Shown: positions 2,932-39,394, counted from the first letter of the stretch. The stretch: DNA of 64,000 nt from Pseudomonadota bacterium (GCA_043806215.1 JAZDHD010000402.1:3661-67660), one strand, 5' to 3'. Numbers and translations: made by a program. The notes: generated from the sequence alone by a model not told the origin.

Positions 2932-3127
2932 GGAGACACTTAGGGCTTGTCCCAAGATAAACCTATCACATCGAGGGCTTCTCGGGCGAATGGTGTAGTC
3001 ATGGGGGCTTCCGGCAATCGGGGGACATGATCCGATTTCGCGAGTGGCGCCATGCGACCTAGCGAAACTCGGAATCGTGTCCCCCGATTGCCAACTTGCA
3101 AGATTTGTTTTGGAACAGACACTTAGC
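2932..3127. repeat. About 195-bp element bounded by direct AGACACTTAG copies and containing a long imperfect hairpin (15-bp perfect arms 3013-3027 / 3078-3092)
   Basis: GGCAATCGGGGGACA at 3013-3027 is the exact reverse complement of TGTCCCCCGATTGCC at 3078-3092. AGACACTTAG occurs at about 2934 and about 3115. Confidence 0.7.
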
Positions 3128-3258
3128 CGTCAGCCTGGACCATGGTAGGGTCCCGGCGCTCGGGCCATGGAAGAATACCGGCACGGAGGCCGGCGCTACC
3201 AAGCAGAGGTAGGCGCGGACACGCTACCGAACTAACGCATCCCGCCGTGGAGAAACGT

Positions 3259-4506: not shown

Positions 4507-4518
4507 GAGGACCGGACA

Positions 4519-6051: not shown

Positions 6052-8073
6052 ATGGAGGTCGGATTGTATAAGACAACCGGTGAATCACCAACCCGGCAGG
6101 CGGGCAAGAGACTCGACGAGCAGACATTGGGAAACATTCTGGCCGCCTGCCCTGTAGGACTTTGCGCGATAGAGGAAAGGAACTTCGTGTGGGTCAACCG
6201 GGCATTGATCAAGATGTTCGGTTACGATTCCGAAGAGCAGTTGGTGGGAAAGAACTCTCGGATGCTCTATGAATCGGACGAAGAATATGAACGGGTCGGT
6301 GCCGTGCTGTATACCGGGCGGCGCCGCCGGACGGTATTCGAAACGGACGCCAGGTTGATCCGAAGGGACGGAAGGGAATTTGAAGGGCACGTACGGATTA
6401 GTTCGCCGGATCCGTCCGACCTCATGAAAGGCACCATCGCCGCCGTTACCGACCGCACACCGATTAGAGAAGCGCAAGCGGACCTCATAGAATCCGAAAG
6501 ACGTTTTCGAGAGATTCTCGAAAATGTACGCCTTGTGGCATTGTGCCTGGACCCTCAAGGAAACATCACTTTCTGTAATGACTTTTTTCTGGAAACAACG
6601 GGCCGCAAGAGAGAAGAAGTTCTCGGAAGGAACTGGTTCGACCTCCTTGAAACGGAAAACTGGAAGGAGAGGCCGAAACGGTGGAACATTCCGTCCGCGT
6701 ACGAGCGAATCCGGCAGAACAACGAACAGATGCTGCCCACAAGAAACGGCGACCTCCGCTGCATACGTTGGAACACGACCATATTCCTTCGAGATCGGCA
6801 TGGGAATGTCGTTGGCCTGGCGAGCATCGGTGAAGACATTACCGAACGGAAGCGGGCAAACGAACTGCTTCTACGTACGGAACGGTTGAAGGCCGTCGGC
6901 GACATGGCGGCCGGAACGGCCCATAACTTCAACAACTTTCTCCAGATCGTCAGCGCAAGATGCTCAATCGCCCAGAAGCTTCTTGAATCGGGAGACACCG
7001 CCCAAGCACGGGCAACAATAGAACAGATATCCAGGACGGGCGATATGGCCGCCGAGATGATAAAGCGCCTCTTGGATTTTTCCAAGAGAGGAGATGAGAC
7101 TGCGGCAAGAGACTCCGAGGTGTTCGACCTCTCTCACACCGTGACACAGGTTGTCGAGATGACCAAGCCTTGGTGGAAAAGCGACGCGGAGAAAGCGGGA
7201 ATCACCGTCTCCCTGAAAACCGAACTAGGATCCGGGTGTCTTGTGAGGGGCAGGGAAAGCGAATTGTTCGAGGTTGCCGTCAACCTTGTAAAGAATGCCG
7301 TGGAAGCCTGTCGCGACGGCGGGGAAATGAGGGTTGACGTGTTTGCCGAAGCGGATCTCGTAGTCTTGCGCGTTCAAGATAACGGTGTTGGAATACATGA
7401 GGCCAATCTCGGGAAGGTTTTTCAACCTTTCTGGACCACCAAGGGCTTTCAGGGAACCGGCATGGGACTCTCCAGCTCGTACGGCATCGTCACACGGCAT
7501 GGAGGGGAGATATCCGTCGAGAGTGTCGAAGGGAGTGGGGCAACCTTCATCGTGAAACTACCTAGAGCTTCGAGCCGGACGATCTCGCGGACTCCGACCG
7601 CTTTCCAATTGCCCGATGTGCGTCTTCGAATCCTTCTCATCGACGATGACGAAACCCTGATCACAACTATTGGGGAAGGTCTCGTCCTGCACGGGCAAGA
7701 GGTCCTCACGGCAACCTCCGGCCGCAAGGCGCTGGCCATTCTCGACAAGAACACCGTTGACGTGGTCATCTGCGACTTGGGGATGGAAGAAATGAACGGG
7801 TGGGAAATAGGCGGGGCCGTCCATGAGACCTGTCTTCAGAAGAGAATACCGAAGCCGCCTTTCATACTTCTAACCGGATGGGGATCGCAGGTTTCGGAAC
7901 AAAGTGCCTATCGATTCTCTGTTGACATGATCGTTTCCAAACCGGTCTCGGTCCTCACGTTGTTGGAAAAGGTCATGGAAGCTCTCGACAATGCGGGGTC
8001 CGACTCGTGTCATCCGACGAGAGCAGCCGTGCCGATGCGCTGCACGCGAGTTTCCGGCAAAGAGTATCAGTGA
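6052..8073 (+). CDS. PAS-domain hybrid sensor histidine kinase with C-terminal receiver
   Basis: Two PAS-like segments, H-box AAGTAHNFNNFLQ, ATPase G-box GTGMGLSSSYGIV, and receiver ILLIDDDE...ICDLGMEEMNG. Confidence 0.88.
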   Translation: MEVGLYKTTGESPTRQAGKRLDEQTLGNILAACPVGLCAIEERNFVWVNRALIKMFGYDSEEQLVGKNSRMLYESDEEYERVGAVLYTGRRRRTVFETDARLIRRDGREFEGHVRISSPDPSDLMKGTIAAVTDRTPIREAQADLIESERRFREILENVRLVALCLDPQGNITFCNDFFLETTGRKREEVLGRNWFDLLETENWKERPKRWNIPSAYERIRQNNEQMLPTRNGDLRCIRWNTTIFLRDRHGNVVGLASIGEDITERKRANELLLRTERLKAVGDMAAGTAHNFNNFLQIVSARCSIAQKLLESGDTAQARATIEQISRTGDMAAEMIKRLLDFSKRGDETAARDSEVFDLSHTVTQVVEMTKPWWKSDAEKAGITVSLKTELGSGCLVRGRESELFEVAVNLVKNAVEACRDGGEMRVDVFAEADLVVLRVQDNGVGIHEANLGKVFQPFWTTKGFQGTGMGLSSSYGIVTRHGGEISVESVEGSGATFIVKLPRASSRTISRTPTAFQLPDVRLRILLIDDDETLITTIGEGLVLHGQEVLTATSGRKALAILDKNTVDVVICDLGMEEMNGWEIGGAVHETCLQKRIPKPPFILLTGWGSQVSEQSAYRFSVDMIVSKPVSVLTLLEKVMEALDNAGSDSCHPTRAAVPMRCTRVSGKEYQ

Positions 8074-17189: not shown

Positions 17190-18707
17190 CTACTTCTCAA
17201 GTACTCCGTATAACCGGCACATCACCTCGTCTCTGGAAACGGCATCCCCGGCTCGGAACCGGCACCCTCCCCCGCACGATTCCGCGTGGTCACAGTCACG
17301 GCACAGGGTGGAATCAATGGGGATGTGTTCCGCTTTGGCCCAAGCTTTCGCCAGTCCCTCTAGTACTGAACCATAGCGCATATCCGGATAGAGACCGCAT
17401 CGGCACACGTCGCCCGAAGGGAGCACCGCTGCCAAATGCCGTCCGCAGGTCCATCCGGGGGAGGTGCCGTGGTACGAACCTCCAAAACCGTAGGCCATGG
17501 CTACGGCCGCGTCGTCGAGCCCTACGGCGAGATCGGGATGCGAAACCCGCCTGCCGGCAACGCAGGGATAGTCGATGCTCCATTCCCGCACACCCAGTTC
17601 GGTCATCAGATCCTTCATCCGCCCGAATTCGCCGAGGTTACCCCGATGCACCATGGTTGCCGCGGACAGATCCAAGCCCGCATTCTTCACTGCGTGCAAG
17701 GCCCTCAGCGCCTTCTTGAACGCTCCTTTGCCCCGAATCATGTCATGGCCTTCTTCCATACCGTCAAGGCTGATCTGCACCTCATGAAAGTGCAGTTTGG
17801 AGACGGCTCTATCGTCAAGGGTCAGTCCGTTGCTCAGGAGCACGGCACGAACGGGATAATCCGGCAGCAGGTTGTTGAGGACATCGAAGTGCGGGTACAA
17901 TGTGGGCTCGCCGCCCGAAACAAGGACCCTCAGACCCTGCATTTCGCTGAACTGCTCCAGCAGAGGCTCGATAAGATCAGGGGGGAAATCCGTGTTGCTT
18001 GATTCCCCGAGATAGCAGTGAGCGCACGACAGATTGCACCTATACGTGACCAACCATTCCAGGTAACGCAATGACGGTATCGGCGAGCGCCCCCGGTACA
18101 ACTTCCCGGGCCTCGCTTCGGGGAGAAACTCCAGGAGATCCTCATCCATGCAGACACACAGAAACGCCGGATCGGGGTTCAGTTGTCTCACCGTGTGTTC
18201 GCCGTTGCACCGGTTGAGCATCTCAAAGGCTTCTGCGTTGACCTCGTACAGTTCATCGTGCTTCACGTGATACAGATAGTGCTCTTCAAGGTTCTTGATT
18301 GCAGTCCGGGGGGTCAGGCCGAGCCGACTGTCGAGATTGCGCCCGATAAGGTCGATTTCTCGAACCGCTTCCTCCGAGAGAGTGCCTTCCCTGAGAAGGC
18401 CGGAGATCAGAACGAGTCCTCCGCACGGCCGACAATTCTCCGGTGGATGCAATGACGTGAAGTCACAATCGTTTACGAGAAAAGGGCATGCCGAGCACAC
18501 ATGGTCTCTCAGGAAAGATCTCTTGAAATCCGGATCGAAGGGGGTGTCCGAGGAAAGCACGGGGCGGGATGACGTCATCGAAGAGAAGACCGAGGTTAGC
18601 TCATAACCTCGGCACCGCTCCTCTTCGGATGAGTTTTGTTTGTAGTAATTGCAGTGGGGACGGCAAACCCAATCTTCCTGGTCGGACAACTCAGATTCAC
18701 CTCTCAT
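17190..18707 (-). CDS. Radical SAM/SPASM-type peptide maturase candidate with N-terminal 8-Cys module and PqqD-like RRE
   Basis: CX3CX2C motif YRCNLSCAHCY (Cys224/228/231). C-terminal Cys cluster GDVCRCG...CRDCDHAESCGGGCRFRA is SPASM or twitch-like. LYEVNAEAFEMLNRCNGEHTVRQL resembles the PqqD/RRE motif. Confidence 0.85.
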   Translation of the reverse strand: MRGESELSDQEDWVCRPHCNYYKQNSSEEERCRGYELTSVFSSMTSSRPVLSSDTPFDPDFKRSFLRDHVCSACPFLVNDCDFTSLHPPENCRPCGGLVLISGLLREGTLSEEAVREIDLIGRNLDSRLGLTPRTAIKNLEEHYLYHVKHDELYEVNAEAFEMLNRCNGEHTVRQLNPDPAFLCVCMDEDLLEFLPEARPGKLYRGRSPIPSLRYLEWLVTYRCNLSCAHCYLGESSNTDFPPDLIEPLLEQFSEMQGLRVLVSGGEPTLYPHFDVLNNLLPDYPVRAVLLSNGLTLDDRAVSKLHFHEVQISLDGMEEGHDMIRGKGAFKKALRALHAVKNAGLDLSAATMVHRGNLGEFGRMKDLMTELGVREWSIDYPCVAGRRVSHPDLAVGLDDAAVAMAYGFGGSYHGTSPGWTCGRHLAAVLPSGDVCRCGLYPDMRYGSVLEGLAKAWAKAEHIPIDSTLCRDCDHAESCGGGCRFRAGDAVSRDEVMCRLYGVLEK

Positions 18708-19404: not shown

Positions 19405-20199
19405 TCAGCTTTTCTCGAATGCGATGACGGCCGCACCCAATGCTCCGACAATCTGAGGATCGACGATGTCGGGGAATCCGACGAACCTGCACTCGAGGAT
19501 CTCTTCGAGTGTTTCCACGACCCCTCTATTCTTCGCCACTCCTCCGGTGATGACGATTTCCTTCTCCATGCCCACCCTCTTTGCCAAGGTGCGTATCCTG
19601 TTGGCAACGGACTTGTGAAGCCCCTTGATTATGGAAGGGAGCGGAACTTCCTCGTTGATGAGATTGATGACTTCGGATTCCGCAAAGACGCTGCACATGC
19701 TGCTGATCATGGCCGGATCGCCTTCGCCGAAGTGCAGCCGTACCATGTCCTTGATCTCTAGATCCATGGACCTGGCCATAAAATCCAAGAATCTTCCGGT
19801 ACCGGCGGCACACTTGTCATTCATGACAAAATCCGCCACCAGCCCTTCATTGTCGATTCTGATGGCCTTGGTGTCCTGTCCCCCTATGTCGACCACGGTC
19901 CTCACTTCCGGGAGCAAATGATGAGCACCCCGTGCATGACAGGAGATTTCCGAGACGTTTTCATCCGCGAACTCGACTCTGGCCCGGCCGTATCCGGTAC
20001 CTATGACATACGCAACCTGCTCTCGGGTAATACCCGCGGATGAAAGAGCCCGTTCGAAGACGAGCCGGGCGGTCTTGCTCGGACTGACCGAGCTCGGTCC
20101 TATGGAATACGAGGCAATCTCTCCCCCCGAGAGTATGACGGCCTTGCTCGTGGATGATCCGATATCGATGCCTGCCGTTATTGTGTCTCCGTTGGCCAA
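19405..20199 (-). CDS. Activator ATPase of 2-hydroxyacyl-CoA dehydratase type (BadF/BadG/BcrA/BcrD family)
   Basis: The long ORF 19405..20745 overlaps the upstream gene. It is trimmed to the TTG at 20199, which has GGGAGGG 6 nt upstream. Motifs GIDIGSSTSKAV and NDKCAAGTGRFLD are present. Confidence 0.8.
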   Translation of the reverse strand: MANGDTITAGIDIGSSTSKAVILSGGEIASYSIGPSSVSPSKTARLVFERALSSAGITREQVAYVIGTGYGRARVEFADENVSEISCHARGAHHLLPEVRTVVDIGGQDTKAIRIDNEGLVADFVMNDKCAAGTGRFLDFMARSMDLEIKDMVRLHFGEGDPAMISSMCSVFAESEVINLINEEVPLPSIIKGLHKSVANRIRTLAKRVGMEKEIVITGGVAKNRGVVETLEEILECRFVGFPDIVDPQIVGALGAAVIAFEKS

Positions 20200-20215
20200 T
20201 TGTAACCCTCCCACG

Positions 20216-21529
20216 CTATTTGTGTTTGCGGGGCAGGACAATGTCTTCGGCAAAGCGCCTGAATTCCTGCTTAAGCGTTTCGACGGACGTGACCCGGGGA
20301 TCGAACAAGTCGAACTCGAAGATAAGCACCGGAATGTCGGCTTCTCTGAGCGCCTCCTTGAGCAGCCCGGCGATGCCCCACGCATGTTTGCACGATATGT
20401 GGCCTGCAATGAGAGCACAATCGGCCTTATACTCTCGTGCCGCACGGACCAGATCGTCGATGAAGTAATCCGGCAACCCCGTGAAGTGGCGTCCCATGGG
20501 CATGAAGATCTGCTTCCTGGCCAAATCGTGCAGGATGGTCTCGGGAGTGGAAGTGTCCACGTACATTTCAGGGACCACGTAACTGAACATGTCCACGGGA
20601 ACGACCATGCCCAGATCGTTTTCCATCCAGTCGTACAAGCCGATATTGAACCACGTGGGCGAACCGAACCATATGGCCCTGACTCTCTCTCCTCCCGGCG
20701 CTGCGGACTTACCCGCCAAAACCCGTTCCTTGGCATCCGCTGCATACTCGGAAGCCACCCAGGTCGCTCCCTTGGTCCCGGAACCGTCCTGGAGCAGGAT
20801 ATACATGGTCGAGAGCATTTTGCTCATCTGAGGACACGGGACCGTTTTGCGAAGGTCAAGCCATTCCAATGCCTGCTCGATCATCCGGTTGCTTTCCTCG
20901 CAGATCTCCTTCAGCCTGTCCCAGTTCAGTCTCTTTCCCGTCTTCTCTTCGAGGAATGTGATCTGATCCTTCAGTTGTCGGGCAACGTGCATGATCTCCC
21001 GCTCGCCGTGAAGGTGCGGGATATCGATCAGAAAGACGTCCTCGCCGGTCTGCTCTTTGATGGTCTCGGCAAGTACCGTTTGGCTGTCGCACGGAGCGGT
21101 TACGAAAACCGAACAGGTAATTTCGGGAAGGAACTTCTTGGCCAGGTTCCCGAGTGTGGCCCTGTCCGCGGAACACACGTCGCTGCTCATTCCTTGGGAC
21201 TCGGCGATTTCCATGGCTTCTATGTTGTACTGGTAATCGCCGACCAATGATTGGAGAGCGACAACCTTCTCCATGGCAAAGGGAAATACCTCATTCTCGT
21301 TGTCCCCCAGTGCGAGCAGGATCTCCGGTATTCCTCCAAGATTGTAGGAGACTACCGGCACTCCGCTGTCCAGCGCGGCCGCAATTCCCTCCGTGGCCAT
21401 TTTGGCGGCCAGAAGAAACGCATTGAAGGCCCTTGAGTCCGGATCTCCCTGGTGGCGCTCCATCAGTCGGTTCACACCTTCATATATGGTTTCAAGCTCC
21501 TTGCCCCGGTCTTTTCCCAGCACCGTCAT
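20216..21529 (-). CDS. 2-hydroxyacyl-CoA dehydratase / benzoyl-CoA reductase B/C-family subunit (HGD-D family)
   Basis: 437 aa. ATGA overlap with the upstream subunit. Family-typical layout with conserved Cys (SDVCSADR, APCDSQ, HISCKH). Confidence 0.75.
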   Translation of the reverse strand: MTVLGKDRGKELETIYEGVNRLMERHQGDPDSRAFNAFLLAAKMATEGIAAALDSGVPVVSYNLGGIPEILLALGDNENEVFPFAMEKVVALQSLVGDYQYNIEAMEIAESQGMSSDVCSADRATLGNLAKKFLPEITCSVFVTAPCDSQTVLAETIKEQTGEDVFLIDIPHLHGEREIMHVARQLKDQITFLEEKTGKRLNWDRLKEICEESNRMIEQALEWLDLRKTVPCPQMSKMLSTMYILLQDGSGTKGATWVASEYAADAKERVLAGKSAAPGGERVRAIWFGSPTWFNIGLYDWMENDLGMVVPVDMFSYVVPEMYVDTSTPETILHDLARKQIFMPMGRHFTGLPDYFIDDLVRAAREYKADCALIAGHISCKHAWGIAGLLKEALREADIPVLIFEFDLFDPRVTSVETLKQEFRRFAEDIVLPRKHK

Positions 21530-22680
21530 CGCACGGCCCCTTTCTTGGATTTGGACTCGATGTTTTCAATGAACGCCTGTACCCGTGTCTTCACCTGGCC
21601 GTATCCGCCCGCCAAGTACTCGCGGTCGAGCACCAGGGTGGGTAGGCCGTTTTCCCGGCCGCGACGGATGAAGTTGTACAGATGGCCGGCATTGATGACG
21701 CACTGTTTCATGCGCTGCGCGATCAGGCCGTCCGCCTTGTAGGCCTGTTTGATCCGCTCGATGTTGGCGTAGCGGGGTGAAAAGCTGTTAAACATCCTGG
21801 CACACGGCACTCGATAGAAGTATCTCTCCGCGATCTTGTCGAGGGGATCTCCGTCTTCGGCCACGAGTTCTTCGTAGAACCTGGCTCCGAAACACGTGTC
21901 CTCGTACACCACCAGTCCGCCCTGCTCTTCTATTGCTTTCAGGAACTCGGGTTCATCCAGTTCCCCGCCGGTAACGATAAAGCGTGCCCTGTAGTTTCGC
22001 GGTTCCTCACCGCCGGCTGTTGCATCGAGGAGTTCACCGGCCAATTCATCGAAGTCCTTCAGCGGCATCAGATGAGCTGCCACCGTTACGGTAAGGGCTT
22101 CGCTTCCGCTGAGCGGAGGGTTGGATCCCCTTCTCAGTTCGTTGAGTTCGATCAGCTTTGTACGGACGGCATTGTGCAGGCCGATTGCTTCGCGCAACTC
22201 GTCCGGTCCGATCTTCACCTGGAAATCCTTTTCCATGGCGGCGATCAGATTCTCCAGTTCCTCCTTGTACCAGGAGAACAGTCTTTCCTCCGCGGCGCGA
22301 GGCACGGAAAGAAACGCATGAAACGGGATTTTGCTCTTCTGCTTCAGGACGTCGTGCGCCCTCCTCGCCTGATCGCAGCCATTCATACAGACTACCCCGG
22401 ACAGGAAGTCGAATTGTCCCTCCAGCGCCAGATTGACGGTATGCCTTACAAACGTGCAGACATTGGAGCTCATATGCACGTCGGCCAGGCCCGTGTCGTC
22501 GCTTCCCGCTCCCCTTATCCGGTACGGTACCATACCTGCGGCGGTCAATATTTCTCCCGGTATCAGGGTGCAGTAGTAGCCGCACACCTTCCCTCCTCCG
22601 GAAATCCATCCATCGAGATAGGTGTTGCGCGGTTTCTGCACAACCTGCTGAAATAGTCTCAATACTTCGGCCTTGTCCAT
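21526..22680 (-). CDS. 2-hydroxyacyl-CoA dehydratase-family subunit (HGD-D family)
   Basis: 384 aa. GGKVCGYYCTLIPGEILTAAGMVPYRI is the characteristic N-terminal motif. Further Cys at NVCTF, NGCDQ and DTCFGAR. Confidence 0.8.
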   Translation of the reverse strand: MDKAEVLRLFQQVVQKPRNTYLDGWISGGGKVCGYYCTLIPGEILTAAGMVPYRIRGAGSDDTGLADVHMSSNVCTFVRHTVNLALEGQFDFLSGVVCMNGCDQARRAHDVLKQKSKIPFHAFLSVPRAAEERLFSWYKEELENLIAAMEKDFQVKIGPDELREAIGLHNAVRTKLIELNELRRGSNPPLSGSEALTVTVAAHLMPLKDFDELAGELLDATAGGEEPRNYRARFIVTGGELDEPEFLKAIEEQGGLVVYEDTCFGARFYEELVAEDGDPLDKIAERYFYRVPCARMFNSFSPRYANIERIKQAYKADGLIAQRMKQCVINAGHLYNFIRRGRENGLPTLVLDREYLAGGYGQVKTRVQAFIENIESKSKKGAVR

Positions 22681-22683
22681 ATC

Positions 22684-23451
22684 TCAGTCTCCCTGAGCTT
22701 TGATAAGGATGTCGGTGATTTTTCTCACCGACTCCAGGATTGGCGAATCGGCTGGAAGGTCAAAAACTGATCGGCCAAGGGCATCGTTCCTCAGCAATCC
22801 CTCATCCTCGGGAATCACGCCCCACGTAAGATCGCGGAGATGTTGTGAGGAAAGGTCGGCATCCCCGCCCAGGTCTTGCCTGCGATTCAGAACGACTCCC
22901 AATCGGGCCTTCATGCCCAATTCACGCACCACCCGGACGATCAGGTCCATGGAGTGCCTGCTTCTCAGTGAGTTGTCCACGAGCACGACAATGGTGTCCA
23001 CAACCGACATGACTTCCCTGTTGATCTGTTCGATTCCGGCTTCCGCGTCCAGCAGCACCACGTCATAGTCCTGGGCGATGTTCTTGACGGATTCCTTCAA
23101 CAACGTGTTGAGGGGACAAAAACAGCCTCTGGAAAGAGGCCTCCCCATTGCCAGGAAACTGAGGTTCTCCGTTTCCGTAAGCGCCTCCAGCATCAGGTAA
23201 TCCATAATCCCGGCGATTTGTTCAGGATTGCGGTCTCTACGGGCCCTTTGTATGAGATCATCCCTGACTTGCCCGAGTGTCTTGATATCGGCGGACAATC
23301 CCACGAAATAGGACAGTCCCAGCGCCGGGTCGGCATCCACTGCGAGAACCCTGAGACCCCGTTCCGCCAGCACCCTGACGACGGCACCGCTGAAAACGGT
23401 CTTACCCACACCTCCTTTACCGCATACGGCAATAACGGTTTGGTTCCCCAT
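22684..23451 (-). CDS. CooC/AcsF-type P-loop ATPase (Ni-insertion accessory protein family)
   Basis: ORF trimmed to the ATG at 23451. Deviant Walker A VCGKGGVGKT, plus RGCFCP (the CXC metal-binding motif I associate with CooC). Confidence 0.7.
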   Translation of the reverse strand: MGNQTVIAVCGKGGVGKTVFSGAVVRVLAERGLRVLAVDADPALGLSYFVGLSADIKTLGQVRDDLIQRARRDRNPEQIAGIMDYLMLEALTETENLSFLAMGRPLSRGCFCPLNTLLKESVKNIAQDYDVVLLDAEAGIEQINREVMSVVDTIVVLVDNSLRSRHSMDLIVRVVRELGMKARLGVVLNRRQDLGGDADLSSQHLRDLTWGVIPEDEGLLRNDALGRSVFDLPADSPILESVRKITDILIKAQGD

Positions 23452-23459
23452 GGTTTTCC

Positions 23460-24206
23460 CTACACCCGTTTCTTCTTCCTCGTTATCGCAACCGCATCTT
23501 TCAGAACCCGGCAAACCTGGTTTTCCGGGCATTCGTTACAATCCACCCCGCTTGTGCACTCGCCCATCTCCCTTATCTCGGCCCTGTACCGATCTCTCTT
23601 CTCCTCGGCCACTCTTTCGGCAGTCGGCCGCAGCATCTCGATATGATTCGCGTCGGAAGAGATAAGGATCACGTTGGCTTTGGTGAACATGTGGCGATCC
23701 TTAAAGATTTCTGCAACAAGTCGCCGACCGATTGCCGCCAGGGTGATGCCGTGATCCAGGGCTTCTTGACGAACCCGAAGCCACATCTTGTCGAGAGCCG
23801 CCCTTGCCGTCACTCCCTGAAAACGGTCACAGACGGAGAGTTTTCCGGACAGAGCCCGCCTGCTGCGCTCGTCGGCCTCAACGACCTCCGCAAGGACGAT
23901 GAGGGCAAAGGGGTGACGCCCGGGAGCGAGCTCGTGGAGTTCGCCGCCCAGGACCAATACCCCGTTATCCCCTATCAGACCGTTTGTCCGCGTGATCAAA
24001 CAGAGGCAGATGGAAGGCGTGGATGGATGCCCCAATTCGAGGACCGTATTCCCGGCGCCGATGATGCGGCGGGGAGCCTCGCCTCTGCACGGGCTCTCGT
24101 CTTCAATACCGGGAAAGACCCGGTAGCGCCGGGCCGGCACCCCTGCCTTTTCCAGTGCCTCCGCCGGCATCTTGATTTCCGCTATGAAGCGACCGTCGTC
24201 CGACAT
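23460..24206 (-). CDS. Short acetyl-CoA synthase (ACS/CdhC) beta-subunit-like protein; middle domain plus start of the cluster-binding Cys motif
   Basis: 248 aa. The segments DNGVLVLGGELHELAPGRHPFALIV, WLRVRQEALDHGITLAAIGRRLVAEIFK, VILISSDANHIE...EEKRDRYR and CTSGVDCNECPENQVC parallel the ACS central region as I remember it. A CooC gene is adjacent. Confidence 0.45.
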   Translation of the reverse strand: MSDDGRFIAEIKMPAEALEKAGVPARRYRVFPGIEDESPCRGEAPRRIIGAGNTVLELGHPSTPSICLCLITRTNGLIGDNGVLVLGGELHELAPGRHPFALIVLAEVVEADERSRRALSGKLSVCDRFQGVTARAALDKMWLRVRQEALDHGITLAAIGRRLVAEIFKDRHMFTKANVILISSDANHIEMLRPTAERVAEEKRDRYRAEIREMGECTSGVDCNECPENQVCRVLKDAVAITRKKKRV

Positions 24207-24271: not shown

Positions 24272-25504
24272 CTACCCACAATCGTAGTACCCGCGGCACA
24301 CGTCCAGGCGTCCCAGCTGGCCGCCCCCCACCCACAGCTGAATCATCTTGCAATCCCGCCAGTACTTCTCCACATCGTAGTCGCGCACGTAACCGTATGC
24401 ACCCATGAGCTCCATTGCCTTGTTCGTCACCGACACGGCAACATCGCATGCATGCATTTTCGCAATGCTCGCTCTGGACAACATGGAATTCGACGTAGGC
24501 GGACCGTAGTCCCCGGGATGATCATACATGTATGCAGCCGCATAGGCATACTGCCGAGCAGTTTCTATGCCCACGGCCATGTCGGCCAGTATGCACGCGG
24601 CCACGGAGTGATCTCGGATCGGTTTGTCGGCGACGACTCTCTCGCCGGTGTATTTGAGAACCGTTTCAAACGCGCCCTGTGCTTGGCCCACGGCCAGAGC
24701 GGCGGTAACCAGACGTCCAAGGATCAGGTTGTTGAGAAGCAATTGGCCATCTTGGCCCGGCCCCGCGGCCCGGAATTCCTTGGGCACCCGTACGTCGTCC
24801 AGGAAGGCCGCATGATTCTTGTCCCCCTGCATGCCCGCTTTCTTCTCGTTCTTGCCGAAAGTGAGCCCTTTGCTGTCTCCGGGCACGTATATTATCGCAA
24901 TCCCCTCATCCCCGAGTCCGGGATCGGTTGTACAGACCACGCAATAGGCATTCGCTATGCCGCTGTTGGATGCCCACATCTTCCGGCCGTTGATAACCCA
25001 TTCGTCCCCGTCGAGTCTGGCCGTGGTTCGAATCTTCTTTCCCTTCAAGGCAACATTCTCTATGTCGCAGCCGCCCCCGCCGTGGGGTCCGCCCGGCTCC
25101 GTCATGGAAAAACAGCCCAATTTCAGGACGTTACCGCAAAACTCAGGAGCGAAGCGATCCAAGACGGCTTTGTTCCCCGCGGCAAGCGCCGGCACAAATG
25201 CCCACCCGGTCACGTTGAAGGCCGTGCAGATCCCGCTGTCGCCGCGGCCGAGTTCTTCGTGCACCACCGCGTTGGTGACGACCGAGGCCGCGCCGCTGCC
25301 GCCGTATTCCTCAGGAAAGGGAGCCTTTTGGATCCCCAGATCCGTCAACCCCTGAAGGACTTTGTGTACCAGCACGTGTTCCTTGTCGTCGTCCACTTGC
25401 TGCCGGATAGGTACGATCTCGTTGTTGACGAACTTGCGGAGCACGTCCCTCAACATGTGATCTTCCTTCTTCAGATACACATCCACCTGCGATTTCATCG
25501 TCAT
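24272..25504 (-). CDS. Acyl-CoA dehydrogenase family protein
   Basis: ORF 24272..25645 trimmed to the ATG at 25504 (AGGAG 7 nt upstream). GCFSMTEPGGPHGGGGCD and the C-terminal ACAD helices are present. Confidence 0.85.
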   Translation of the reverse strand: MTMKSQVDVYLKKEDHMLRDVLRKFVNNEIVPIRQQVDDDKEHVLVHKVLQGLTDLGIQKAPFPEEYGGSGAASVVTNAVVHEELGRGDSGICTAFNVTGWAFVPALAAGNKAVLDRFAPEFCGNVLKLGCFSMTEPGGPHGGGGCDIENVALKGKKIRTTARLDGDEWVINGRKMWASNSGIANAYCVVCTTDPGLGDEGIAIIYVPGDSKGLTFGKNEKKAGMQGDKNHAAFLDDVRVPKEFRAAGPGQDGQLLLNNLILGRLVTAALAVGQAQGAFETVLKYTGERVVADKPIRDHSVAACILADMAVGIETARQYAYAAAYMYDHPGDYGPPTSNSMLSRASIAKMHACDVAVSVTNKAMELMGAYGYVRDYDVEKYWRDCKMIQLWVGGGQLGRLDVCRGYYDCG

Positions 25505-25715
25505 AGATCCGCTCCTGTTTTTTTCGCGGCCGTGGCCTGCCGGCCTGTTGGAAGGGATTTCGTCGGCGTTCCCGTCGTTTTGCGGTTTGGCCGGGTTTCC
25601 GCCTCTGCTTTCAAGGACATTTCCACGTAGGAGTTGGATAGGCATTCGGCGCTCAGGCTTCCCGCTTCCTGCCGCTGACCGGAGGTTGTGCCCAAAGCCT
25701 ATCCGCTCAACACCA

Positions 25716-25731
25716 AGCAGGATTCATGCCG
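25716..25731 (-). promoter_or_regulatory. Weak sigma-54 promoter candidate CGGCAT-GAATC-CTGCT (minus strand) upstream of the dehydrogenase/dehydratase operon
   Basis: GG-N10-GC spacing is conserved; both flanking T positions are mismatched. Lies about 215 nt upstream of the ATG at 25504. Confidence 0.3.
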
Positions 25732-27290: not shown

Positions 27291-28721
27291 TCAATCACCA
27301 CGTTTGTTCTTCAAGCGCTGATTCAGTGCCTGGGGCGTAATCCCCAACATGAATGCCGCGGCCCGCTGATTCCCGTTCGAGCGGTGCAGCGCCTCGCTGA
27401 TGAGTGCCGCGGTCGCTTCCTTGATGGTGGGAAGCTGATCCAGGTGAGCAAATGATGGCTCGACCGACGACGAGGGCCGGACGAAGCCATGGATGGTTGC
27501 GGCTCCTTCACTGCCCTGTATGGCTGTCTTGAAGAGATCCGTCGAGAGCACTTCCGACCGGCTTCTTCCCACTGCGTCCACCACCAGTGACTTGAGTTCT
27601 CTCACATTGCCCGGGAAGTGATGGCTTTGGAGAAGTTCGACAAGATCTTGACCGTATGTCGGTCTTTCTCTATCAAACTCTCTTGCCGCCTCTTCGATGA
27701 AGCAATCGAGAAGGATCGGGATGTCGTCCAAGCGCTCCCGCAGGGGAGGAATGCGCACGGTGTGCGTGCGGAGTCTGTAGAAGAGGTCTTCTCGGAACCG
27801 CCGTTCCTGTACCAACTTCGACAGATCCCTGTGGGTGGCGAAGAGAAACCTCACGTTTGCAGGCTTGGCCACATCAGCGCCCAAGGGAACGTACTCCTGC
27901 TTGTCGAGAAGGCGCAACAGCTTCACCTGTGAGTTCAGACTGAGGTCCCCGATTTCATCCAGGAACAGACTGCCTCCCGCGGCTCGCTCGATCCGGCCCA
28001 ACCTTACGCCGGCCGCGTCGGTGAATGCGCCTTTTACGTGGCCGAAAAGGGTATCCGCGAACATGTTGTCGTCGACACCCGCGGCATTGACCGCAACAAG
28101 ATCTCCTTCCCTTTCGCTGAGGGCATGGATGGCTTCGGCAATGAGTTCCTTGCCGACACCGGACTCGCCGGTTATCAGCACCGGGTGGGTTCCCACCGCA
28201 ATTGCCTCACAGTACCGGAATATGGCCTTCATGTTGCGGTTGCGTGTGACAATTCGTGAGAACTTGTCGGGATCCTCGGGTGAGTCGGAGAAAAAGCGGT
28301 GGATGAGTCTGGCATTCTCCCGCTTCAATTGGCGCATCTCGGTCGCCCTGCGGACAATGGGGAGCAGCCGCTCCCTGTCGACGGGTTTGAGGACGTAGTC
28401 GAATGCACCCCTTTGCATACACCGGACCGCCGTCTCCACCTCGTTTACTCCCGTTACCATTATGACGGGAATCTCCGGATATTTGACGACGAGGCTCGAC
28501 AGGATCTCTTCGCCCGAGAGATCGGGCATCAGCAGGTCCAGGAGGATAAGTTCAGCCTCCATGCCGGCAAGAATCTCGAACACCCGCGGACTTTCCGAGC
28601 AAGTGACGATGTTGGTGTAGCCTCCGGTGCGCAGTGCAACTTCGAAGCTCTTGACGGCATGAATTTCGTCGTCGACAATGAGTATGGGCTTGTGGGGCGC
28701 CCTGCCTCGCTTGCCGATCAT
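27291..28721 (-). CDS. Sigma-54-dependent response regulator (NtrC family enhancer-binding protein)
   Basis: Trimmed to the ATG at 28721 (GGAGGGG upstream, ATGA overlap with the kinase stop). Receiver ILIVDDE...DLLMPDLSG, AAA+ GESGVGKE and GAFTDA loop, C-terminal Fis-type HTH. Confidence 0.9.
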   Translation of the reverse strand: MIGKRGRAPHKPILIVDDEIHAVKSFEVALRTGGYTNIVTCSESPRVFEILAGMEAELILLDLLMPDLSGEEILSSLVVKYPEIPVIMVTGVNEVETAVRCMQRGAFDYVLKPVDRERLLPIVRRATEMRQLKRENARLIHRFFSDSPEDPDKFSRIVTRNRNMKAIFRYCEAIAVGTHPVLITGESGVGKELIAEAIHALSEREGDLVAVNAAGVDDNMFADTLFGHVKGAFTDAAGVRLGRIERAAGGSLFLDEIGDLSLNSQVKLLRLLDKQEYVPLGADVAKPANVRFLFATHRDLSKLVQERRFREDLFYRLRTHTVRIPPLRERLDDIPILLDCFIEEAAREFDRERPTYGQDLVELLQSHHFPGNVRELKSLVVDAVGRSRSEVLSTDLFKTAIQGSEGAATIHGFVRPSSSVEPSFAHLDQLPTIKEATAALISEALHRSNGNQRAAAFMLGITPQALNQRLKNKRGD

Positions 28722-30934
28722 TCTTTTCCCCTCCGGCAGACGCAGGCATATGCGCCCAGGACCGCATCGGCCTCTTGAGGCAAGCAATGGGGATGGTGGG
28801 AGGCGGAAGACAACTCGTCCCCATCGGCACATGCAGCGCAGCACACGCCCGAGTCCACGGCCGGCAAACGAAGATACACCTTGGTACCGGCGCCGAATTT
28901 CGACTCGAATTCCAGTCTCCCATTATGTTCTTTTACTATCCCTGCACATACGGACAATCCGAGGCCGGTCCCGCCGACGTCCGCCTTTGTCGTGAAGAAC
29001 GGATCGAGGACATGATCCATGTGTTCGGGCCGGATACCCGTGCCCTCATCCGCAATGCACACCACAACCTCATTATCTTCCGGAACATGAGATGTCGTGA
29101 CGACAATTCCCTTATTCCGGTCGGGCAATGCTTGACAGGCATTCTGGATGAGGTTGACCACCACCTGTTCCAGCCTTTGCAGGCTTCCCCTTACCAAAGG
29201 CAGATTCTTTGGACAGTCCACAAATACCGACCGAGTAGACTTCTTGATTTGATGTGCCGTAAGGCTCAGGGCCGCGGTAACGACATCGTTCACGTTCACC
29301 TTGTGCGTCACATCCGCACTATCCCTCTTGGCATAGTTCTTCATGTTCGCGATGATCCGGCTGATCCGTTTCGACCCTTCCCATATCCCATCGAACAGAT
29401 TGGTGATTTCGCTTCGCATCTCCGAATAGGGGATGTTCGACACCAGAAAATCGCCGCACTCCTCATGGTATTTGTCGAGAACCGGGAGGACGTCCTCCCA
29501 CGCATTGCGAAGAACCGAGGAGTTCATCATGATGAAGTTGTTCGGGTTGTTGATTTCATGGGCAACCCCCGACGCCACGACGCCCAATGAAGCCAGTTTG
29601 TCGGCTTCCACCAATTGGCGCCGTCTAAGTTCCGCCTCTTCCTCCATCTTTCTCTTGTCCGTGATATCGATCCCGATGGAGACAATGTGGGCCTTCATCT
29701 CCTTCGTGTCTCCCATGAGGCTGTTGGACCAGGAGATGAGCCGCCGTTGGCCCCCCCTGGTCACCCAGTGATTCTCAAAAGACGCAGGGGGAGCCTTCTC
29801 TTCGGTCAATGGAAATATCCCCTTGACGCAGTCGCTTTCCTTGGGGGAAACAAGGAAGTCCCAGACATGGCTCCCCACCGTTTCCTCGGCGGAGTACCCC
29901 GTCAATCGTTCACAAGCCTCATTGAAGAGCACGATGCGGCCCTCATGGTCCGTAACCAGTATGAGGGCGCCTCTGTTGTTGAGGACGGCCCCCGTGAATT
30001 TTCTCTCTTCGTTGAGCTTCTCCTCGGTTTGCCTCCGTCGTATCTCGGCCCCGAGACGATTGGCAACCGCCTGAACGGCATCGATCATAAGATTCGTTTC
30101 AAGGCGTTCAATGGTGTCGGCAAGCACTATGGCGCCTATGGCATTGCCTTCAACGTTCAGAGGCACGGCGAGAATCGTTTCAGCACCGGCCTCCCTGAGC
30201 ACATATCCTCTGAACTCATCGGTCTTACTCAGTCCCGTCACATTGACTGTTTCCCTGTCCCGGACCACCTTCCACGAAAAGCATCGTTCAGGCGGCAGGC
30301 GTTTGGCCGTACGCAGGAGTTTGCCTGAGAAATCGACTTCTCCCAGCACAAGTATCTCGTCCGCTGGTTCGTCGTACAGACAGATCACTCCGTAGGGGTA
30401 ATCGAATCGTTCGACAATCATTGCCACGAGCTGTCCGCAAATCTCCGATAACGTCTTAGGGGAATGAAATATCTCGGAAATCGAGTTGAGGACCTCGGTC
30501 ACGCTGTACCGGTTCCTCAGATAGGAAACGTCCTGAGCCACGATCAGCCGGCCCGGGATCTTCTCATCCGCACAAGTGACGGGGTACGATCTGGTGTAAT
30601 ACAGGCGCCCAATGAGCAGGCTGCTTTCTATGACCTCGATGCGTTCGGACGATGGGCCCTTCACTACGGGACAGCCTTCGCAGGGGACTTCGAATTGACA
30701 GGCGACATCGAAAAACCGATTTCCGACCATCTCCTCCCGCGTGCGGCCGACAAATTCCGCCGCTGCCTGATTCGTCCAAAGGACGTTCAGGTTATGGTCG
30801 TGATAGACGATCATTTCGGGCATGGCGTCGAGAAACGATTCGAGCAGGTCCCCCTTCTTCTCTTTGTCCATCTCGTGCACGGGAATCGAGAGTTGCGCCG
30901 GGTGCGGGCGGAATTCGGTCATTTCTCCCTCCAT
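28718..30934 (-). CDS. Cytoplasmic PAS-GAF-PAS sensor histidine kinase with Cys/His-rich C-terminal tail
   Basis: H-box ASGVAHEINNPNNF and G-box GGTGLGLSVCAGIV. No obvious TM segment. The tail is GVCCAACADGDELSSASHHPHCLPQ...ACVCRRGKE. Confidence 0.88.
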   Translation of the reverse strand: MEGEMTEFRPHPAQLSIPVHEMDKEKKGDLLESFLDAMPEMIVYHDHNLNVLWTNQAAAEFVGRTREEMVGNRFFDVACQFEVPCEGCPVVKGPSSERIEVIESSLLIGRLYYTRSYPVTCADEKIPGRLIVAQDVSYLRNRYSVTEVLNSISEIFHSPKTLSEICGQLVAMIVERFDYPYGVICLYDEPADEILVLGEVDFSGKLLRTAKRLPPERCFSWKVVRDRETVNVTGLSKTDEFRGYVLREAGAETILAVPLNVEGNAIGAIVLADTIERLETNLMIDAVQAVANRLGAEIRRRQTEEKLNEERKFTGAVLNNRGALILVTDHEGRIVLFNEACERLTGYSAEETVGSHVWDFLVSPKESDCVKGIFPLTEEKAPPASFENHWVTRGGQRRLISWSNSLMGDTKEMKAHIVSIGIDITDKRKMEEEAELRRRQLVEADKLASLGVVASGVAHEINNPNNFIMMNSSVLRNAWEDVLPVLDKYHEECGDFLVSNIPYSEMRSEITNLFDGIWEGSKRISRIIANMKNYAKRDSADVTHKVNVNDVVTAALSLTAHQIKKSTRSVFVDCPKNLPLVRGSLQRLEQVVVNLIQNACQALPDRNKGIVVTTSHVPEDNEVVVCIADEGTGIRPEHMDHVLDPFFTTKADVGGTGLGLSVCAGIVKEHNGRLEFESKFGAGTKVYLRLPAVDSGVCCAACADGDELSSASHHPHCLPQEADAVLGAYACVCRRGKE

Positions 30935-37354: not shown

Positions 37355-38566
37355 CTATCCCACCTTGAAGATCATGGATGCGCCGGTATCGCCGGCCGCA
37401 CAACCGGTCCAGAGGCAATATCCTCCGCCCAGATCCACCATCTCCTCCAACATCTCCGCGATGATCCTCCCCGCGGTGGGCGCCTGGGGATGGCCGTAGA
37501 TCAAAGAACATCCGTAGTTGTTCATCTGCATCACATCGATGCCGAGTTTCTTGGCGAAATTGACGTCATTGACGGCAAAAGGGTTATGGCTCTTGATGGC
37601 CTTCATTTCCGTTATCTTCATGCCCGCATTGGCAAGTGCCATTTCCGCCGCGGGTACCGGCGCTGCGGCCATGAGGCCCGGCCCGACCCGTGAAAAGCCG
37701 TAGGAGACGATTTGGATCTCCACGGCGGGATTTGTGCTCAACTCTTTTGCCTTGTCACGGGTGGTGACGATGAAACCGCAGTTCCCGTCCGCGGGAAAAG
37801 TCTGGGCCCCGAAGCTGTGGACGCCTCCCGGCTCCACCGGTCTCAGCTTTGCCAGCCCCTCCGCGTTGGTGGCGGTTACTCCCTCATCCTCCTCGATAAG
37901 TTTGGTCTTCTTCCTGCTGAGCCTCACCTCTACGGGGAACATGTAGCGCTTCTGGAAGGCTCGGTCGTTCTCCAAAGACATGAGATACTGCTCGTAGCGG
38001 CGGAGCACCACCGCATCGACTTCCTCCCTGGTGATGCCCGCTTGCTTGGCCACATTCTCCGCGGTCTGGAGCATCTTGAGGGGCGGCTTGACGTTGGGGT
38101 CGGAGTTGATGTTGTCCAGAAACCAGTTCTCGTGTATTACCTCTCCTCCGGGCCCTCCCGGGTTGGGCCATACACTGTGTGCTCCGTTGGAGCACCGGTC
38201 CGTCATGAGGCCGAAGCCCACTTCGAACGCACCCTGTTCAATGGCCAGGGCCGCGAGGTTCAAGATCGTGGTGGAAGTGGAGCAGGCCTGGTGAATGAAC
38301 AGTCCGGCCAGTCCCTTCTGATTGTCCACGAGTATGCCGCCCGACCAGGTGTGCCCATAGAAGAGATGCTTCTGGTGATTCGTGATTCCGAAATAGAGGT
38401 AGTCGATGATTGTCGGGTCGATATTCCTTTTTTCCAGAAACCATTTCCTTGCCGTTTTTCCGCCCAACTCGATGGCGTTCTCATTCTGCATGGACCCCTG
38501 CCAACGGCAGAAGGGCGTCGAATAGTAACCGCCGTACGGGATGTATGCCTTTGAAAAGGTGTTCAT
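37355..38566 (-). CDS. Thiolase-like protein
   Basis: 403 aa. Motifs IHQACSTS, CSLIYGHPQAPTAGR and TGCAAGDTGAS. Confidence 0.8.
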   Translation of the reverse strand: MNTFSKAYIPYGGYYSTPFCRWQGSMQNENAIELGGKTARKWFLEKRNIDPTIIDYLYFGITNHQKHLFYGHTWSGGILVDNQKGLAGLFIHQACSTSTTILNLAALAIEQGAFEVGFGLMTDRCSNGAHSVWPNPGGPGGEVIHENWFLDNINSDPNVKPPLKMLQTAENVAKQAGITREEVDAVVLRRYEQYLMSLENDRAFQKRYMFPVEVRLSRKKTKLIEEDEGVTATNAEGLAKLRPVEPGGVHSFGAQTFPADGNCGFIVTTRDKAKELSTNPAVEIQIVSYGFSRVGPGLMAAAPVPAAEMALANAGMKITEMKAIKSHNPFAVNDVNFAKKLGIDVMQMNNYGCSLIYGHPQAPTAGRIIAEMLEEMVDLGGGYCLWTGCAAGDTGASMIFKVG

Positions 38567-38632
38567 GAAACTTGTCTCCTATGAGTCTTGGTTGAGGATG
38601 TTTTCATCCTGCAATGGGGTTGTCCGCACTGC

Positions 38633-39394
38633 CTAGAACACGAACAGGTCGAGACCGCCCATCATGTTCATGATGGATCCCGTCATATAGGCTGCGCTGT
38701 CCGAGCACAAATACGCTATGGCGTCGGCGATTTCCGTAGTGGTTGCGGGTCTCCGGAAGGCCGTCTTCTTTTCAACGGCCTGGCGGACCGGCTCGGGGAG
38801 GCCTTCATAGCTGTCGGTGGCACATATGCCGATGAGCACGCAGTTTGCCGTGATGTTGAACCGTGCACCTTCCAGGGCGGCAGATTTGGCAAGCGCTATG
38901 AGACCGGCCTTGGCGGCACCATAACTTGACTGCCCCGCACCGCCCAACACTCCGGCCACCGACGACATGTTTACGATACGGCCCCACTTCTTGGCGCACA
39001 TGTCCGGCCATGCCTGCTTGATGCAATAGAATGCGGAATTGAGACAAAGCTTCACTTCATAGTCCCATTCTTCCACAGTGGTCTTGGCAATGCTTATGTT
39101 GTGCCCCATGAGCGCCGCATTGTTTACCAGGATATCGACGGACCCGATCTCCTGCTTGATGGCGGCGAAGCCTTTTGCAACATCCTCGGCATCAGTCGCA
39201 TCCATCCGGACGGCAAGAGCCTTTCTGCCCATTGCCCTGATTTCTTCCGCGAGGGCCTCGACCCCTTCCATGTGATTAAAGCCCGTTACCGCCACATCCG
39301 CTCCCTGCCTTGCCAGCGTAAGGGCGGCGTGCCTCCCGACGCCTTTCGGCATGGAAGCGCCTGTTACCAATGCAAGCTTTCCGTCCAACGACAT
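38633..39394 (-). CDS. Short-chain dehydrogenase/reductase (3-oxoacyl reductase-like)
   Basis: LVTGAS..GVG dinucleotide motif, NNAA, and SSYGAAK (the catalytic YxxxK). Confidence 0.88.
   Translation of the reverse strand: MSLDGKLALVTGASMPKGVGRHAALTLARQGADVAVTGFNHMEGVEALAEEIRAMGRKALAVRMDATDAEDVAKGFAAIKQEIGSVDILVNNAALMGHNISIAKTTVEEWDYEVKLCLNSAFYCIKQAWPDMCAKKWGRIVNMSSVAGVLGGAGQSSYGAAKAGLIALAKSAALEGARFNITANCVLIGICATDSYEGLPEPVRQAVEKKTAFRRPATTTEIADAIAYLCSDSAAYMTGSIMNMMGGLDLFVF

Follow-up and report, generated by a model that had tools for sequence, protein, structure and literature searches.

A stand-alone acetyl-CoA synthase domain and a CooC-type ATPase are conserved gene partners of double-cubane-type HGD-D enzymes

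Acetyl-CoA synthase (ACS) domains and the CooC/AcsF chaperones have, to our knowledge, been discussed only in the context of CO/CO2 fixation. There, AcsF acts on ACS and CooC acts on carbon monoxide dehydrogenase (CODH), and the proteins of the CooC family serve as maturation factors. Another set of described systems is built around proteins of the HGD-D family, i.e., class I benzoyl-CoA reductases (BCRs) such as BzdNOPQ and MbdNO, the double-cubane protein DCCP with DCCP-R from Carboxydothermus hydrogenoformans, and the 2-hydroxyacyl-CoA dehydratases (HadBC/HadI, HgdAB/HgdC, FldBC/FldI, LcdAB). These ATP-driven radical enzymes form a class whose reactions include some of the hardest reductions in biology. 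Here, we describe a stretch of DNA of 64,000 nucleotides (nt) from a Pseudomonadota bacterium (GCA_043806215.1, JAZDHD010000402.1:3661-67660; hereafter the window, meaning the whole stretch) in which a stand-alone protein related to the middle domain of ACS, which we call mini-ACS, and its own CooC-type ATPase are encoded together with two HGD-D subunits and their activator. Across related loci, the genes for mini-ACS and the ATPase form a conserved pair that is fixed together and linked to a double-cubane HGD-D enzyme with its activator. The cassette can be described as a system of the HGD-D/BCR type whose accessory pair is new and derives from ACS and CooC. We found no description of it in the full-text literature available without subscription, and the reviews and structural papers on double-cubane proteins and BCRs that we consulted, among them a review covering DCCP, mention no CooC-like or ACS-like partners. 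A preprint on SAO/double-cubane proteins describes a different gene neighbourhood (10.1101/2022.07.06.499078).

The pair lies within a run of six minus-strand genes, given here from the first gene of the operon to the last with the support for each assignment:

24272..25507, minus strand: acyl-CoA dehydrogenase (ACAD), 411 amino acids (aa), heading the operon; all four Pfam domains of ACADs
23460..24206, minus strand: mini-ACS, stand-alone protein of 248 aa; Pfam CdhC, NCBIfam cdhC, PDB profile, AlphaFold2 (AF2)/Foldseek
22684..23451, minus strand: CooC-family P-loop ATPase (SIMIBI, deviant Walker A), 255 aa; CooC1 best PDB match, CXC aligned
21526..22680, minus strand: BzdN/DCCP-like HGD-D subunit, 384 aa; Pfam HGD-D 274 bits
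20216..21529, minus strand: BzdO-like catalytic HGD-D subunit, 437 aa; Pfam HGD-D 179 bits
19405..20196, minus strand: ASKHA-type ATP-dependent activator (BcrAD_BadFG / acyl-CoA dehydratase activase), 263 aa; Pfam 200 bits, TIGR00241

From the ACAD to the activator, consecutive genes are spaced by 65, 8, 3, -4, and 19 nt, and we therefore regard the six as one operon. For the ATPase, a 282-aa open reading frame (ORF) reaching 23532 is an upstream extension, with orthologues starting at MGNQ or its equivalent. The mechanical call for the activator (19405-20745, minus strand, 446 aa) overlaps the preceding HGD-D gene by ~530 nt, and its start was placed at the ATG at 20196 (263 aa) by comparison with orthologues such as the 264-aa one of locus L001, a Desulfomonilaceae metagenome-assembled genome (MAG). 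A sequence-only reading of this DNA had already named the ACAD, the two HGD-D subunits and the activator as neighbours of the pair, which Pfam confirms. It had also noted the absence of any gene for CODH, a corrinoid protein or a methyltransferase; indeed, Pfam finds no CODH (prismane), corrinoid iron-sulfur protein (CFeSP) or pterin-binding methyltransferase domain in ORFs of at least 200 aa of the window, and CODH, CFeSP and methyltransferase are equally lacking from the Pfam-annotated related loci.

Mini-ACS consists of an N-terminal helix and strand (residues ~1-48), the CoA-binding middle domain (A2) of ACS (~49-210), a C-terminal cysteine motif, and a basic helix (…RKKKRV). The initial suggestion that it resembles only the central domain of ACS/CdhC is borne out by both profile and structure comparison. 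As a single sequence, mini-ACS scores 25.7 bits against Pfam CdhC (cut-off 24), and its matches to the NCBIfam cdhC/ACS families (E 5e-11 to 6e-7) cover only CdhC positions 20-208 or bacterial ACS positions 313-479, at 28-42 bits against curated family cut-offs of 356-809. A profile of 135 family representatives matches only ACS/CdhC chains in the PDB (E 1.4e-25), and the PDB matches of the sequence itself are likewise confined to ACS. With the AF2 model (pLDDT 92.6, pTM 0.86), Foldseek gives 23 matches at E up to 1e-3, every one of them an ACS, aligned over ~165-173 columns at a root-mean-square deviation of 2.1-3.0 Å. Judged by profile and predicted structure, the core of mini-ACS is the A2 domain of ACS and homologous to nothing else in the PDB, i.e., it has the fold and the sequence family of the central ~160-170 residues in common with AcsB/CdhC.

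A word-indexed homology search returned 3 close relatives for the single mini-ACS sequence among 5.8 billion proteins and 15 for the family profile, so that an exhaustive profile search was needed to see the family, whose profile matches run to 281 representatives at 50% identity when E values up to 1e-3 are taken. At least 150 of them, the best-scoring ones, are without exception stand-alone proteins of ~113-319 aa, mostly 230-290 aa, and the matches beyond them could include full-length ACS. The protein had been called a truncated ACS-like protein at the outset. Since mini-ACS is a stand-alone family, "truncated" holds for it only in an evolutionary sense. In contrast to ACS, its members are stand-alone proteins of ~250 aa, are linked to HGD-D enzymes, and have no CODH, CFeSP or methyltransferase as partner. 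That the gene is a pseudogene or an artefact of truncation was considered and rejected, since length and stop position are kept across the family. The small number of close orthologues (3 proteins in 5.8 billion) and a single-sequence Pfam score just 1.7 bits above the cut-off would suit a chance resemblance or a decaying ACS/AcsF remnant without a function of its own. We give this explanation practically no credence, as it is refuted by the conservation data: the profile hits ACS only (E 1.4e-25), the structural match is confident, the up to 281 representatives keep invariant Cys and Gly and near-invariant Trp/Arg residues, and gene length, gene order and partner are kept across Bacteria and Archaea. 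The mini-ACS in the window has an identical counterpart in a MAG labelled "Pseudomonadota bacterium". Its nearest relatives come from Desulfomonilaceae and Desulfomonile MAGs, and a scan of genome contigs with close mini-ACS sequences matched only the Desulfomonilaceae MAG. Current annotation labels hide the cassette, with mini-ACS being named "hypothetical protein" or "CO dehydrogenase/acetyl-CoA synthase beta subunit" and the ATPase "AAA family ATPase".

Two features of mini-ACS stand out by their conservation. The first is the C-terminal motif C217-x5-C223-x2-C226-x5-C232 (CTSGVDCNECPENQVC); the chain stops 16 residues after its last cysteine. It had been noticed that this short motif stands where the A-cluster ligands of ACS begin, and the profile alignment agrees: the CxxC of mini-ACS falls on the first CxxC of the A-cluster cubane. 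The CxxC…C directly after the A2 domain is thus a feature in common with ACS, whereas the spacing is not (C-x2-C-x8-C-x9-C in the ACS cubane, C-x2-C-x5-C in mini-ACS). Among the 135 family members, G59, C223, C226, and C232 are invariant, and E57, L58, P61, G87, G131, W142, and R144 are at least 90% conserved. Of 137 full-length representatives, 104 have the four-cysteine form C-x(2-5)-C-x2-C-x5-C, and the remaining 33 have C-x2-C-x5-C. The second feature is the WxR motif (…W-V/L-R-I/V-S…), which in ACS contacts the adenine-diphosphate end of CoA. Mini-ACS keeps this motif, and its W142/R144 align with W426/R428 of C. hydrogenoformans ACS. By numbering offset, not a printed alignment, W142 also corresponds to Trp405 of C. 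autoethanogenum ACS (CaACS), which stacks the adenine of bound acetyl-CoA (bioRxiv 10.1101/2024.08.05.606187).

The partner ATPase had been read as MinD/CooC-type, with CGKGGVGKT and RGCFCP motifs, of which the latter was associated with the metal-binding dimer interface of CooC/AcsF chaperones. Both are present, the former at residues 10-18 as part of the deviant Walker A motif VCGKGGVGKT. Among proteins of solved structure, CooC1 comes closest (3kje; residues 7-230 aligned at E 2e-14, 26% identity, C-F-C aligned with C-Y-C), ahead of MinD (E 4e-9) and BchL (E 3e-4). Among 57 homologues, the deviant Walker A motif does not vary, nor do C110, C112, and N115 of the dimer-interface motif G109-C110-F-C112-P-x-N115, which contains the CXC metal site of this dimerising family, and G-C-[FY]-C-x-x-N is present in each of the 27 complete partner ATPases of related loci. 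Every homologue that carries a name at JGI is called "CO dehydrogenase maturation factor". We assign the ATPase to the CooC family on sequence and motif, because a fold search cannot separate CooC1 from FlhG, MinD, BchL, or NifH; the comparison of CooC/AcsF with MinD/ParA and Mrp that had been proposed as a check thus favours the former by sequence, CXC motif and JGI names, but not by fold. The protein has the size (~255 aa), the deviant Walker A motif and the CXC(xxN) at the same alignment position in common with CooC/AcsF, and its gene likewise adjoins that of an ACS-related target. It differs from them in being only 26% identical to CooC1, in belonging to a clade of its own (sequences at least 38% identical to the window protein), and in having a presumed target without a nickel site of known kind. 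A MinD/ParA-like positioning ATPase was rejected in view of the invariant CXC and the fixed pairing with mini-ACS.

Mini-ACS nearly always adjoins its own CooC-like ATPase gene. The two genes lie side by side or overlap in the window as well as in L001, L002, L004, L006-L009, L059, L060, L062, and L063. Close orthologues with an identical six-gene operon occur in the Desulfomonilaceae MAG, a JGI contig, and a D. tiedjei MAG, and the ACAD gene is kept upstream of mini-ACS in L001, L002, L059, and L057. The distant family members that we surveyed (18-28% identity) show other arrangements. Two Sigynarchaeota assemblies have the order SCP2, GlcD-like, CCG, mini-ACS, CooC-like with two HGD-D and two activator genes divergently upstream. 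Further loci read GMC oxidoreductase, mini-ACS, CooC-like, HGD-D; or HGD-D, HGD-D, activator, mini-ACS, CooC-like, electron transfer flavoprotein (ETF), FixCX; or CooC-like, HGD-D, HGD-D, activator, small ORF, mini-ACS. The pair stands with two HGD-D genes in the 16 loci counted below, in the window orthologues and in 4 of the 6 other subfamilies looked up, and wherever the DNA extends far enough it includes the activator.

A metagenome scan with another mini-ACS subfamily gave 48 loci. Linkage was counted in the 16 non-redundant loci that extend 3.5 kb or more to either side, with HGD-D sought within 6 kb: HGD-D genes are found in 16/16, an activator in 15/16, and a CooC-like gene in 14/16 cases. 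The usual order in this subfamily is N, O, activator, mini-ACS, weak SCP2-like ORF, CooC-like. A second N/O/activator set often follows the cassette: a single pair has two complete HGD-D N/O/activator sets around it in L023, L026, and L044/L045, and three in L045. Reverse look-ups from the ATPase led to the same cassette for all four homologues (41-68% identity), which are labelled D. tiedjei, a MAG in 54 blocks of the collection, Desulfitobacterium sp., and Actinobacteria. HGD-D genes are expected to be rare in genomes, and chance therefore cannot give this linkage pattern. A conserved linkage to HGD-D genes, the last point on which the sequence-only reading had staked its interpretation, is thus found from both sides and in independent subfamilies of Bacteria and Asgard archaea, with two sampled loci lacking HGD-D in the DNA available. 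Going by MAG and metagenome labels, on which the taxonomic spread of family and cassette rests, the sources include Desulfomonilaceae, Desulfitobacterium, Actinobacteria, and Asgard archaea, i.e., relatives of sulfate reducers, Firmicutes, Actinobacteria, and archaea.

The company of oxidoreductases raises the question whether the pair might instead be an ATP-coupled electron-transfer module. The CooC-like dimer would then work like a nitrogenase Fe protein (NifH/BchL), gate or energise electron transfer, and pass low-potential electrons from flavoenzymes (ACAD, ETF/FixCX, GMC, GlcD/CCG) to the activator or the HGD-D enzyme, either via the mini-ACS cluster or via a cluster bridged by the two CXC motifs of the ATPase. 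A flavoprotein or Fe-S oxidoreductase gene lies in or beside the cassette in part of the Pfam-annotated loci (none was seen in L007, L010, L062, and L063), and in one case the pair accompanies a GlcD/CCG oxidoreductase operon that has no HGD-D gene. The cassette contains no ferredoxin gene, which class I BCR clusters usually carry, and in its AF2 model the ATPase is as close to BchL and NifH as to CooC1. By sequence, however, the ATPase is closer to CooC1 (E 2e-14) than to NifH or BchL (2.6e-4), has the CXC of CooC instead of the cluster cysteine pattern of NifH, and already shares its cassette with an ATP-driven electron activator. We also know of no CooC-family member that transfers electrons, and all in all consider this explanation unlikely, if worth keeping in mind.

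The enzyme to which the pair is linked resembles BCRs and DCCP. In NCBIfam, the 384-aa subunit scores 191 bits against double_cubane (cut-off 350) and 137 bits against bzdN (cut-off 454), and in the PDB it matches BzdN (8s02_B, E 5e-40) and DCCP (E 6e-29). Its C37, C75, C102, C263, C293, and C327 align with BzdN Cys36/73/100/263/293/327, the six ligands of the [8Fe-9S] double cubane (PMC11971306), and these six cysteines are kept in 33-35 of 35 cassette homologues. The 437-aa subunit matches BzdO in the PDB (8s02_A, E 3e-11, Cys95/128/380 aligned) and reaches 49 bits against NCBIfam bzdO (cut-off 449). The three [4Fe-4S] cysteines of BzdO align with its C119, C147, and C380, and C119, C147, and C371/C380 are invariant across the cassette homologues, which suggests that this subunit carries a three-Cys [4Fe-4S] cluster with an open site. 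Of the Glu65/His131 proton relay of BzdO, His131 is replaced by Gln and Glu65 lies outside the aligned region. The activator scores 253 bits against TIGR00241 (cut-off 125). Since BzdNO and DCCP are the best matches but the scores remain below the equivalog cut-offs, we call the enzyme BCR/DCCP-like.

A comparison with the described systems makes this more specific. An N-like subunit with six cysteines, an O-like subunit with a three-Cys [4Fe-4S] site, and an ASKHA activator are common to the cassette and BzdNOPQ or MbdNO. It departs from these by a single activator gene in place of the P/Q pair, by the replacement of BzdO His131 with Gln and NCBIfam scores far below the equivalog cut-offs, and by the extra genes for mini-ACS, the CooC-like ATPase, and the ACAD, whose own top NCBIfam matches are cyclohexane-1-carbonyl-CoA dehydrogenase and the acryloyl-CoA reductase AcrC (both far below cut-offs). 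DCCP/DCCP-R has the HGD-D fold with [8Fe-9S] ligands and the homodimer-type ASKHA activator in common with the cassette, but DCCP is a single-subunit homodimer and the cassette encodes an N/O heteromer. The 2-hydroxyacyl-CoA dehydratases combine an HGD-D alpha/beta pair with an activator as well, and the ACAD/ETF or 2-hydroxyacid dehydrogenase-type flavoenzymes beside them, as in reductive amino-acid fermentation, are also met beside the cassette. They are more distant than BzdNO and DCCP (HadC E 3e-19, HadB 1e-5), and the cassette differs from them by its N-like subunit with six cluster cysteines and by having no CoA-transferase gene. The locus was first described as an acyl-CoA dehydratase-type operon, but its HGD-D proteins are closer to BzdNO and the double-cubane type than they are to the classical dehydratases.

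A CoA-transferase gene (hadA, fldA, or gctAB) is part of classical 2-hydroxyacyl-CoA dehydratase operons, and one could imagine that the pair replaces it as an ATP-dependent device that forms CoA thioesters or handles CoA. No CoA-transferase or AMP-forming ligase domain is found in any Pfam-annotated cassette, mini-ACS keeps its CoA-binding domain, and Pfam CbiA groups the ATPase with CobQ/CobB, which are ligase-type enzymes. Yet a deviant Walker A motif with signature Lys plus CXC marks a dimer-switch ATPase of the MinD/NifH/CooC type, not a ligase of the BioD/CobQ type, the acetyl-transfer residues of ACS are not conserved in mini-ACS, and a transferase gene missing from an operon is weak evidence, so that we rate this idea as highly improbable.

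Our preferred reading, held tentatively and with slightly less than an even chance of being right, is that the pair is an accessory module of the HGD-D radical enzyme, composed of a CoA-binding Fe-S (perhaps also Ni) protein, mini-ACS, and its maturation ATPase. The HGD-D enzyme would be an ATP-dependent radical enzyme of the benzoyl-CoA-reductase/double-cubane type acting on a CoA ester, in which electrons would pass from the activator to the [8Fe-9S] cluster of the N-subunit and on to the open-site [4Fe-4S] cluster of the O-subunit. In mini-ACS, the cysteine motif would hold a [4Fe-4S]-type centre, possibly with an extra metal, and W142/R144 would bind the nucleotide of CoA, be it that of the substrate or of free CoA. 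The CooC-like ATPase would load or complete this metal site through ATP binding and hydrolysis, which would parallel the action of AcsF on ACS and of CooC on CODH. Mini-ACS may then be a shared auxiliary, i.e., an electron carrier and/or a handler of CoA esters, for one or more BzdNO-like N/O enzymes. That one pair can serve two or three HGD-D/activator sets fits such a shared accessory role and not that of a fixed catalytic subunit. A possible role of nickel is suggested by family membership. The sequence-only reading had proposed an uncharacterised metallocluster component of a CoA-ester-transforming enzyme, and the three points that it named as tests came out in its favour, that on the ATPase by sequence.

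Several observations weigh against this reading. Compared with ACS, mini-ACS has neither A1 nor A3, lacks the Cys-Gly-Cys nickel site, and does not conserve the catalytic Arg and His. Its alignments to ACS end at ACS_Ch residues 509-523, the next gene begins 8 nt downstream, and the A3 domain, the fourth cubane cysteine (Mt C528), and the nickel-binding Cys595-Gly-Cys597 are all absent. The canonical A-cluster therefore cannot form, and mini-ACS was rejected as a canonical ACS for want of an A3 domain and a nickel site. CaACS Arg383/His386, proposed for acetyl transfer (bioRxiv 10.1101/2024.08.05.606187), correspond to Gly121/Ser124 in mini-ACS and are not conserved. The cysteine motif could bind zinc or a single metal ion instead of a cubane, no nickel transporter, hyp, or nik genes are found in the Pfam-annotated neighbourhoods, and a fold search with the AF2 model of the ATPase returns FlhG, BchL, MinD, CooC1, and NifH alike (all E 1e-12 to 1e-10). 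L006 and L007 have the pair without HGD-D in the DNA available, where a profile search for divergent HGD-D genes found none either. DCCP is not known to need helpers of this kind to obtain its clusters in E. coli. BzdNO was produced in E. coli, complete with clusters, in the absence of such helpers (PMC11971306), so that the pair is no general requirement of this enzyme class.

Another possibility is that the ATPase, with mini-ACS as a scaffold or adaptor and not as a working redox or CoA-binding component, matures the [8Fe-9S] double cubane or the open-site [4Fe-4S] cluster of the HGD-D enzyme itself. The linked HGD-D proteins keep all six double-cubane cysteines, a single pair for several HGD-D sets is what one would expect of a maturation factor, and maturation is what CooC-family proteins do. 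We nevertheless find it decidedly unlikely: in E. coli, BzdNO gets its clusters with no factors of this sort (nor is DCCP known to need them), L006 and L007 contain the pair but no HGD-D in the DNA available, and the conserved Trp/Arg for the adenine of CoA has no obvious use in a scaffold.

A bolder version of the accessory module, which we regard as quite improbable, makes the pair a new ATP-dependent metallo-module that is a working redox or CoA-activating partner of BCR-like radical enzymes in Bacteria and Asgard archaea, either with a split A-cluster-like centre or as a fourth class of electron-energising metallo-ATPase. In the split-centre case, mini-ACS would give the cubane cysteines and the Cys-X-Cys of the ATPase would give the nickel-type site, mirroring the Cys-Gly-Cys of ACS. 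If this were true, the ACS A2 domain and AcsF/CooC would have had a life beyond the Wood-Ljungdahl pathway.

Irrespective of the mechanism, the cassette places a stand-alone ACS A2 protein and its own CooC-type ATPase as fixed accessories beside ATP-driven radical enzymes of the BCR/double-cubane/2-hydroxyacyl-CoA dehydratase family. It points to an unrecognised component in this enzyme class, which could be an additional metal centre, a donor of electrons, or a subunit that handles CoA, and it bears on how ACS was assembled from domains. It also offers an expressible five-gene system for asking what CooC-type ATPases do beyond nickel insertion into CODH and ACS.

With regard to possible substrates, an SCP2 ORF (sterol-carrier/acyl-CoA-binding type) recurs with the pair in L011-L058 (e.g., L041 5360-6130, plus strand), L004 (4913-5323), and L006 (3020-3451). 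In one bacterial subfamily, it separates mini-ACS from the CooC-like gene and has a weak Pfam match (20 bits, cut-off 21.3), whereas it heads the operon SCP2, GlcD-like, CCG, mini-ACS, CooC-like in Asgard-type loci. This recurrence hints at hydrophobic CoA esters as substrates. Downstream of the cassette in L041 (7006-10713), HMG-CoA-lyase-like, enoyl-CoA hydratase, and acyl-CoA carboxyltransferase genes, identified by eye from translations, resemble a branched-chain CoA pathway of the leucine or acyclic-terpene type. L006 additionally has a 604-aa ORF between CCG and mini-ACS (6139-7953, plus strand) with no Pfam match and no similarity to the HGD-D profiles.

The operon is probably under the control of a two-component system encoded upstream of it:

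28718..30934, minus strand: PAS/GAF sensor histidine kinase paired with the regulator; Pfam PAS, GAF, HATPase_c
27291..28721, minus strand: sigma-54-dependent response regulator, probable operon regulator, start likely M42 of the listed ORF; Pfam Response_reg, Sigma54_activat, HTH_8
25716..25731, minus strand: weak sigma-54 -24/-12-like site cGGCATgaatcCTGCt, ~210 nt upstream of the ACAD start codon, read by eye

The kinase and regulator genes overlap by 4 nt if the regulator starts at M42, and the same two genes stand upstream of the operon in the orthologous loci L001 and L059. The site has GG and GC with the correct 12-nt spacing and 3 mismatches to TGGCAC-N5-TTGCW. A scan with the sigma-54 consensus gave no match with up to 2 mismatches near the operon and an overall number of matches not above chance. 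The site is thus only suggestive.

Downstream of the operon, the window encodes a radical SAM/SPASM protein of 505 aa with a Cys-rich N-terminal extension of ~200 aa (17190-18707, minus strand). The Desulfomonilaceae MAG (L001) has a homologue of 499 aa at the corresponding place, and an aldehyde:ferredoxin oxidoreductase and a ThiS-like gene stand there instead in the D. tiedjei MAG (L059). Other fatty-acid/CoA-ester genes of the window are located at 470-5709 (plus strand) and 37355-39394 (minus strand) and encode an ACAD, a 3-hydroxyacyl-CoA dehydrogenase, two thiolases, another thiolase, and a short-chain dehydrogenase/reductase. Farther along, two phosphoenolpyruvate-utilising (PPDK_N) proteins are encoded at 45610-48312 and 50711-53326.

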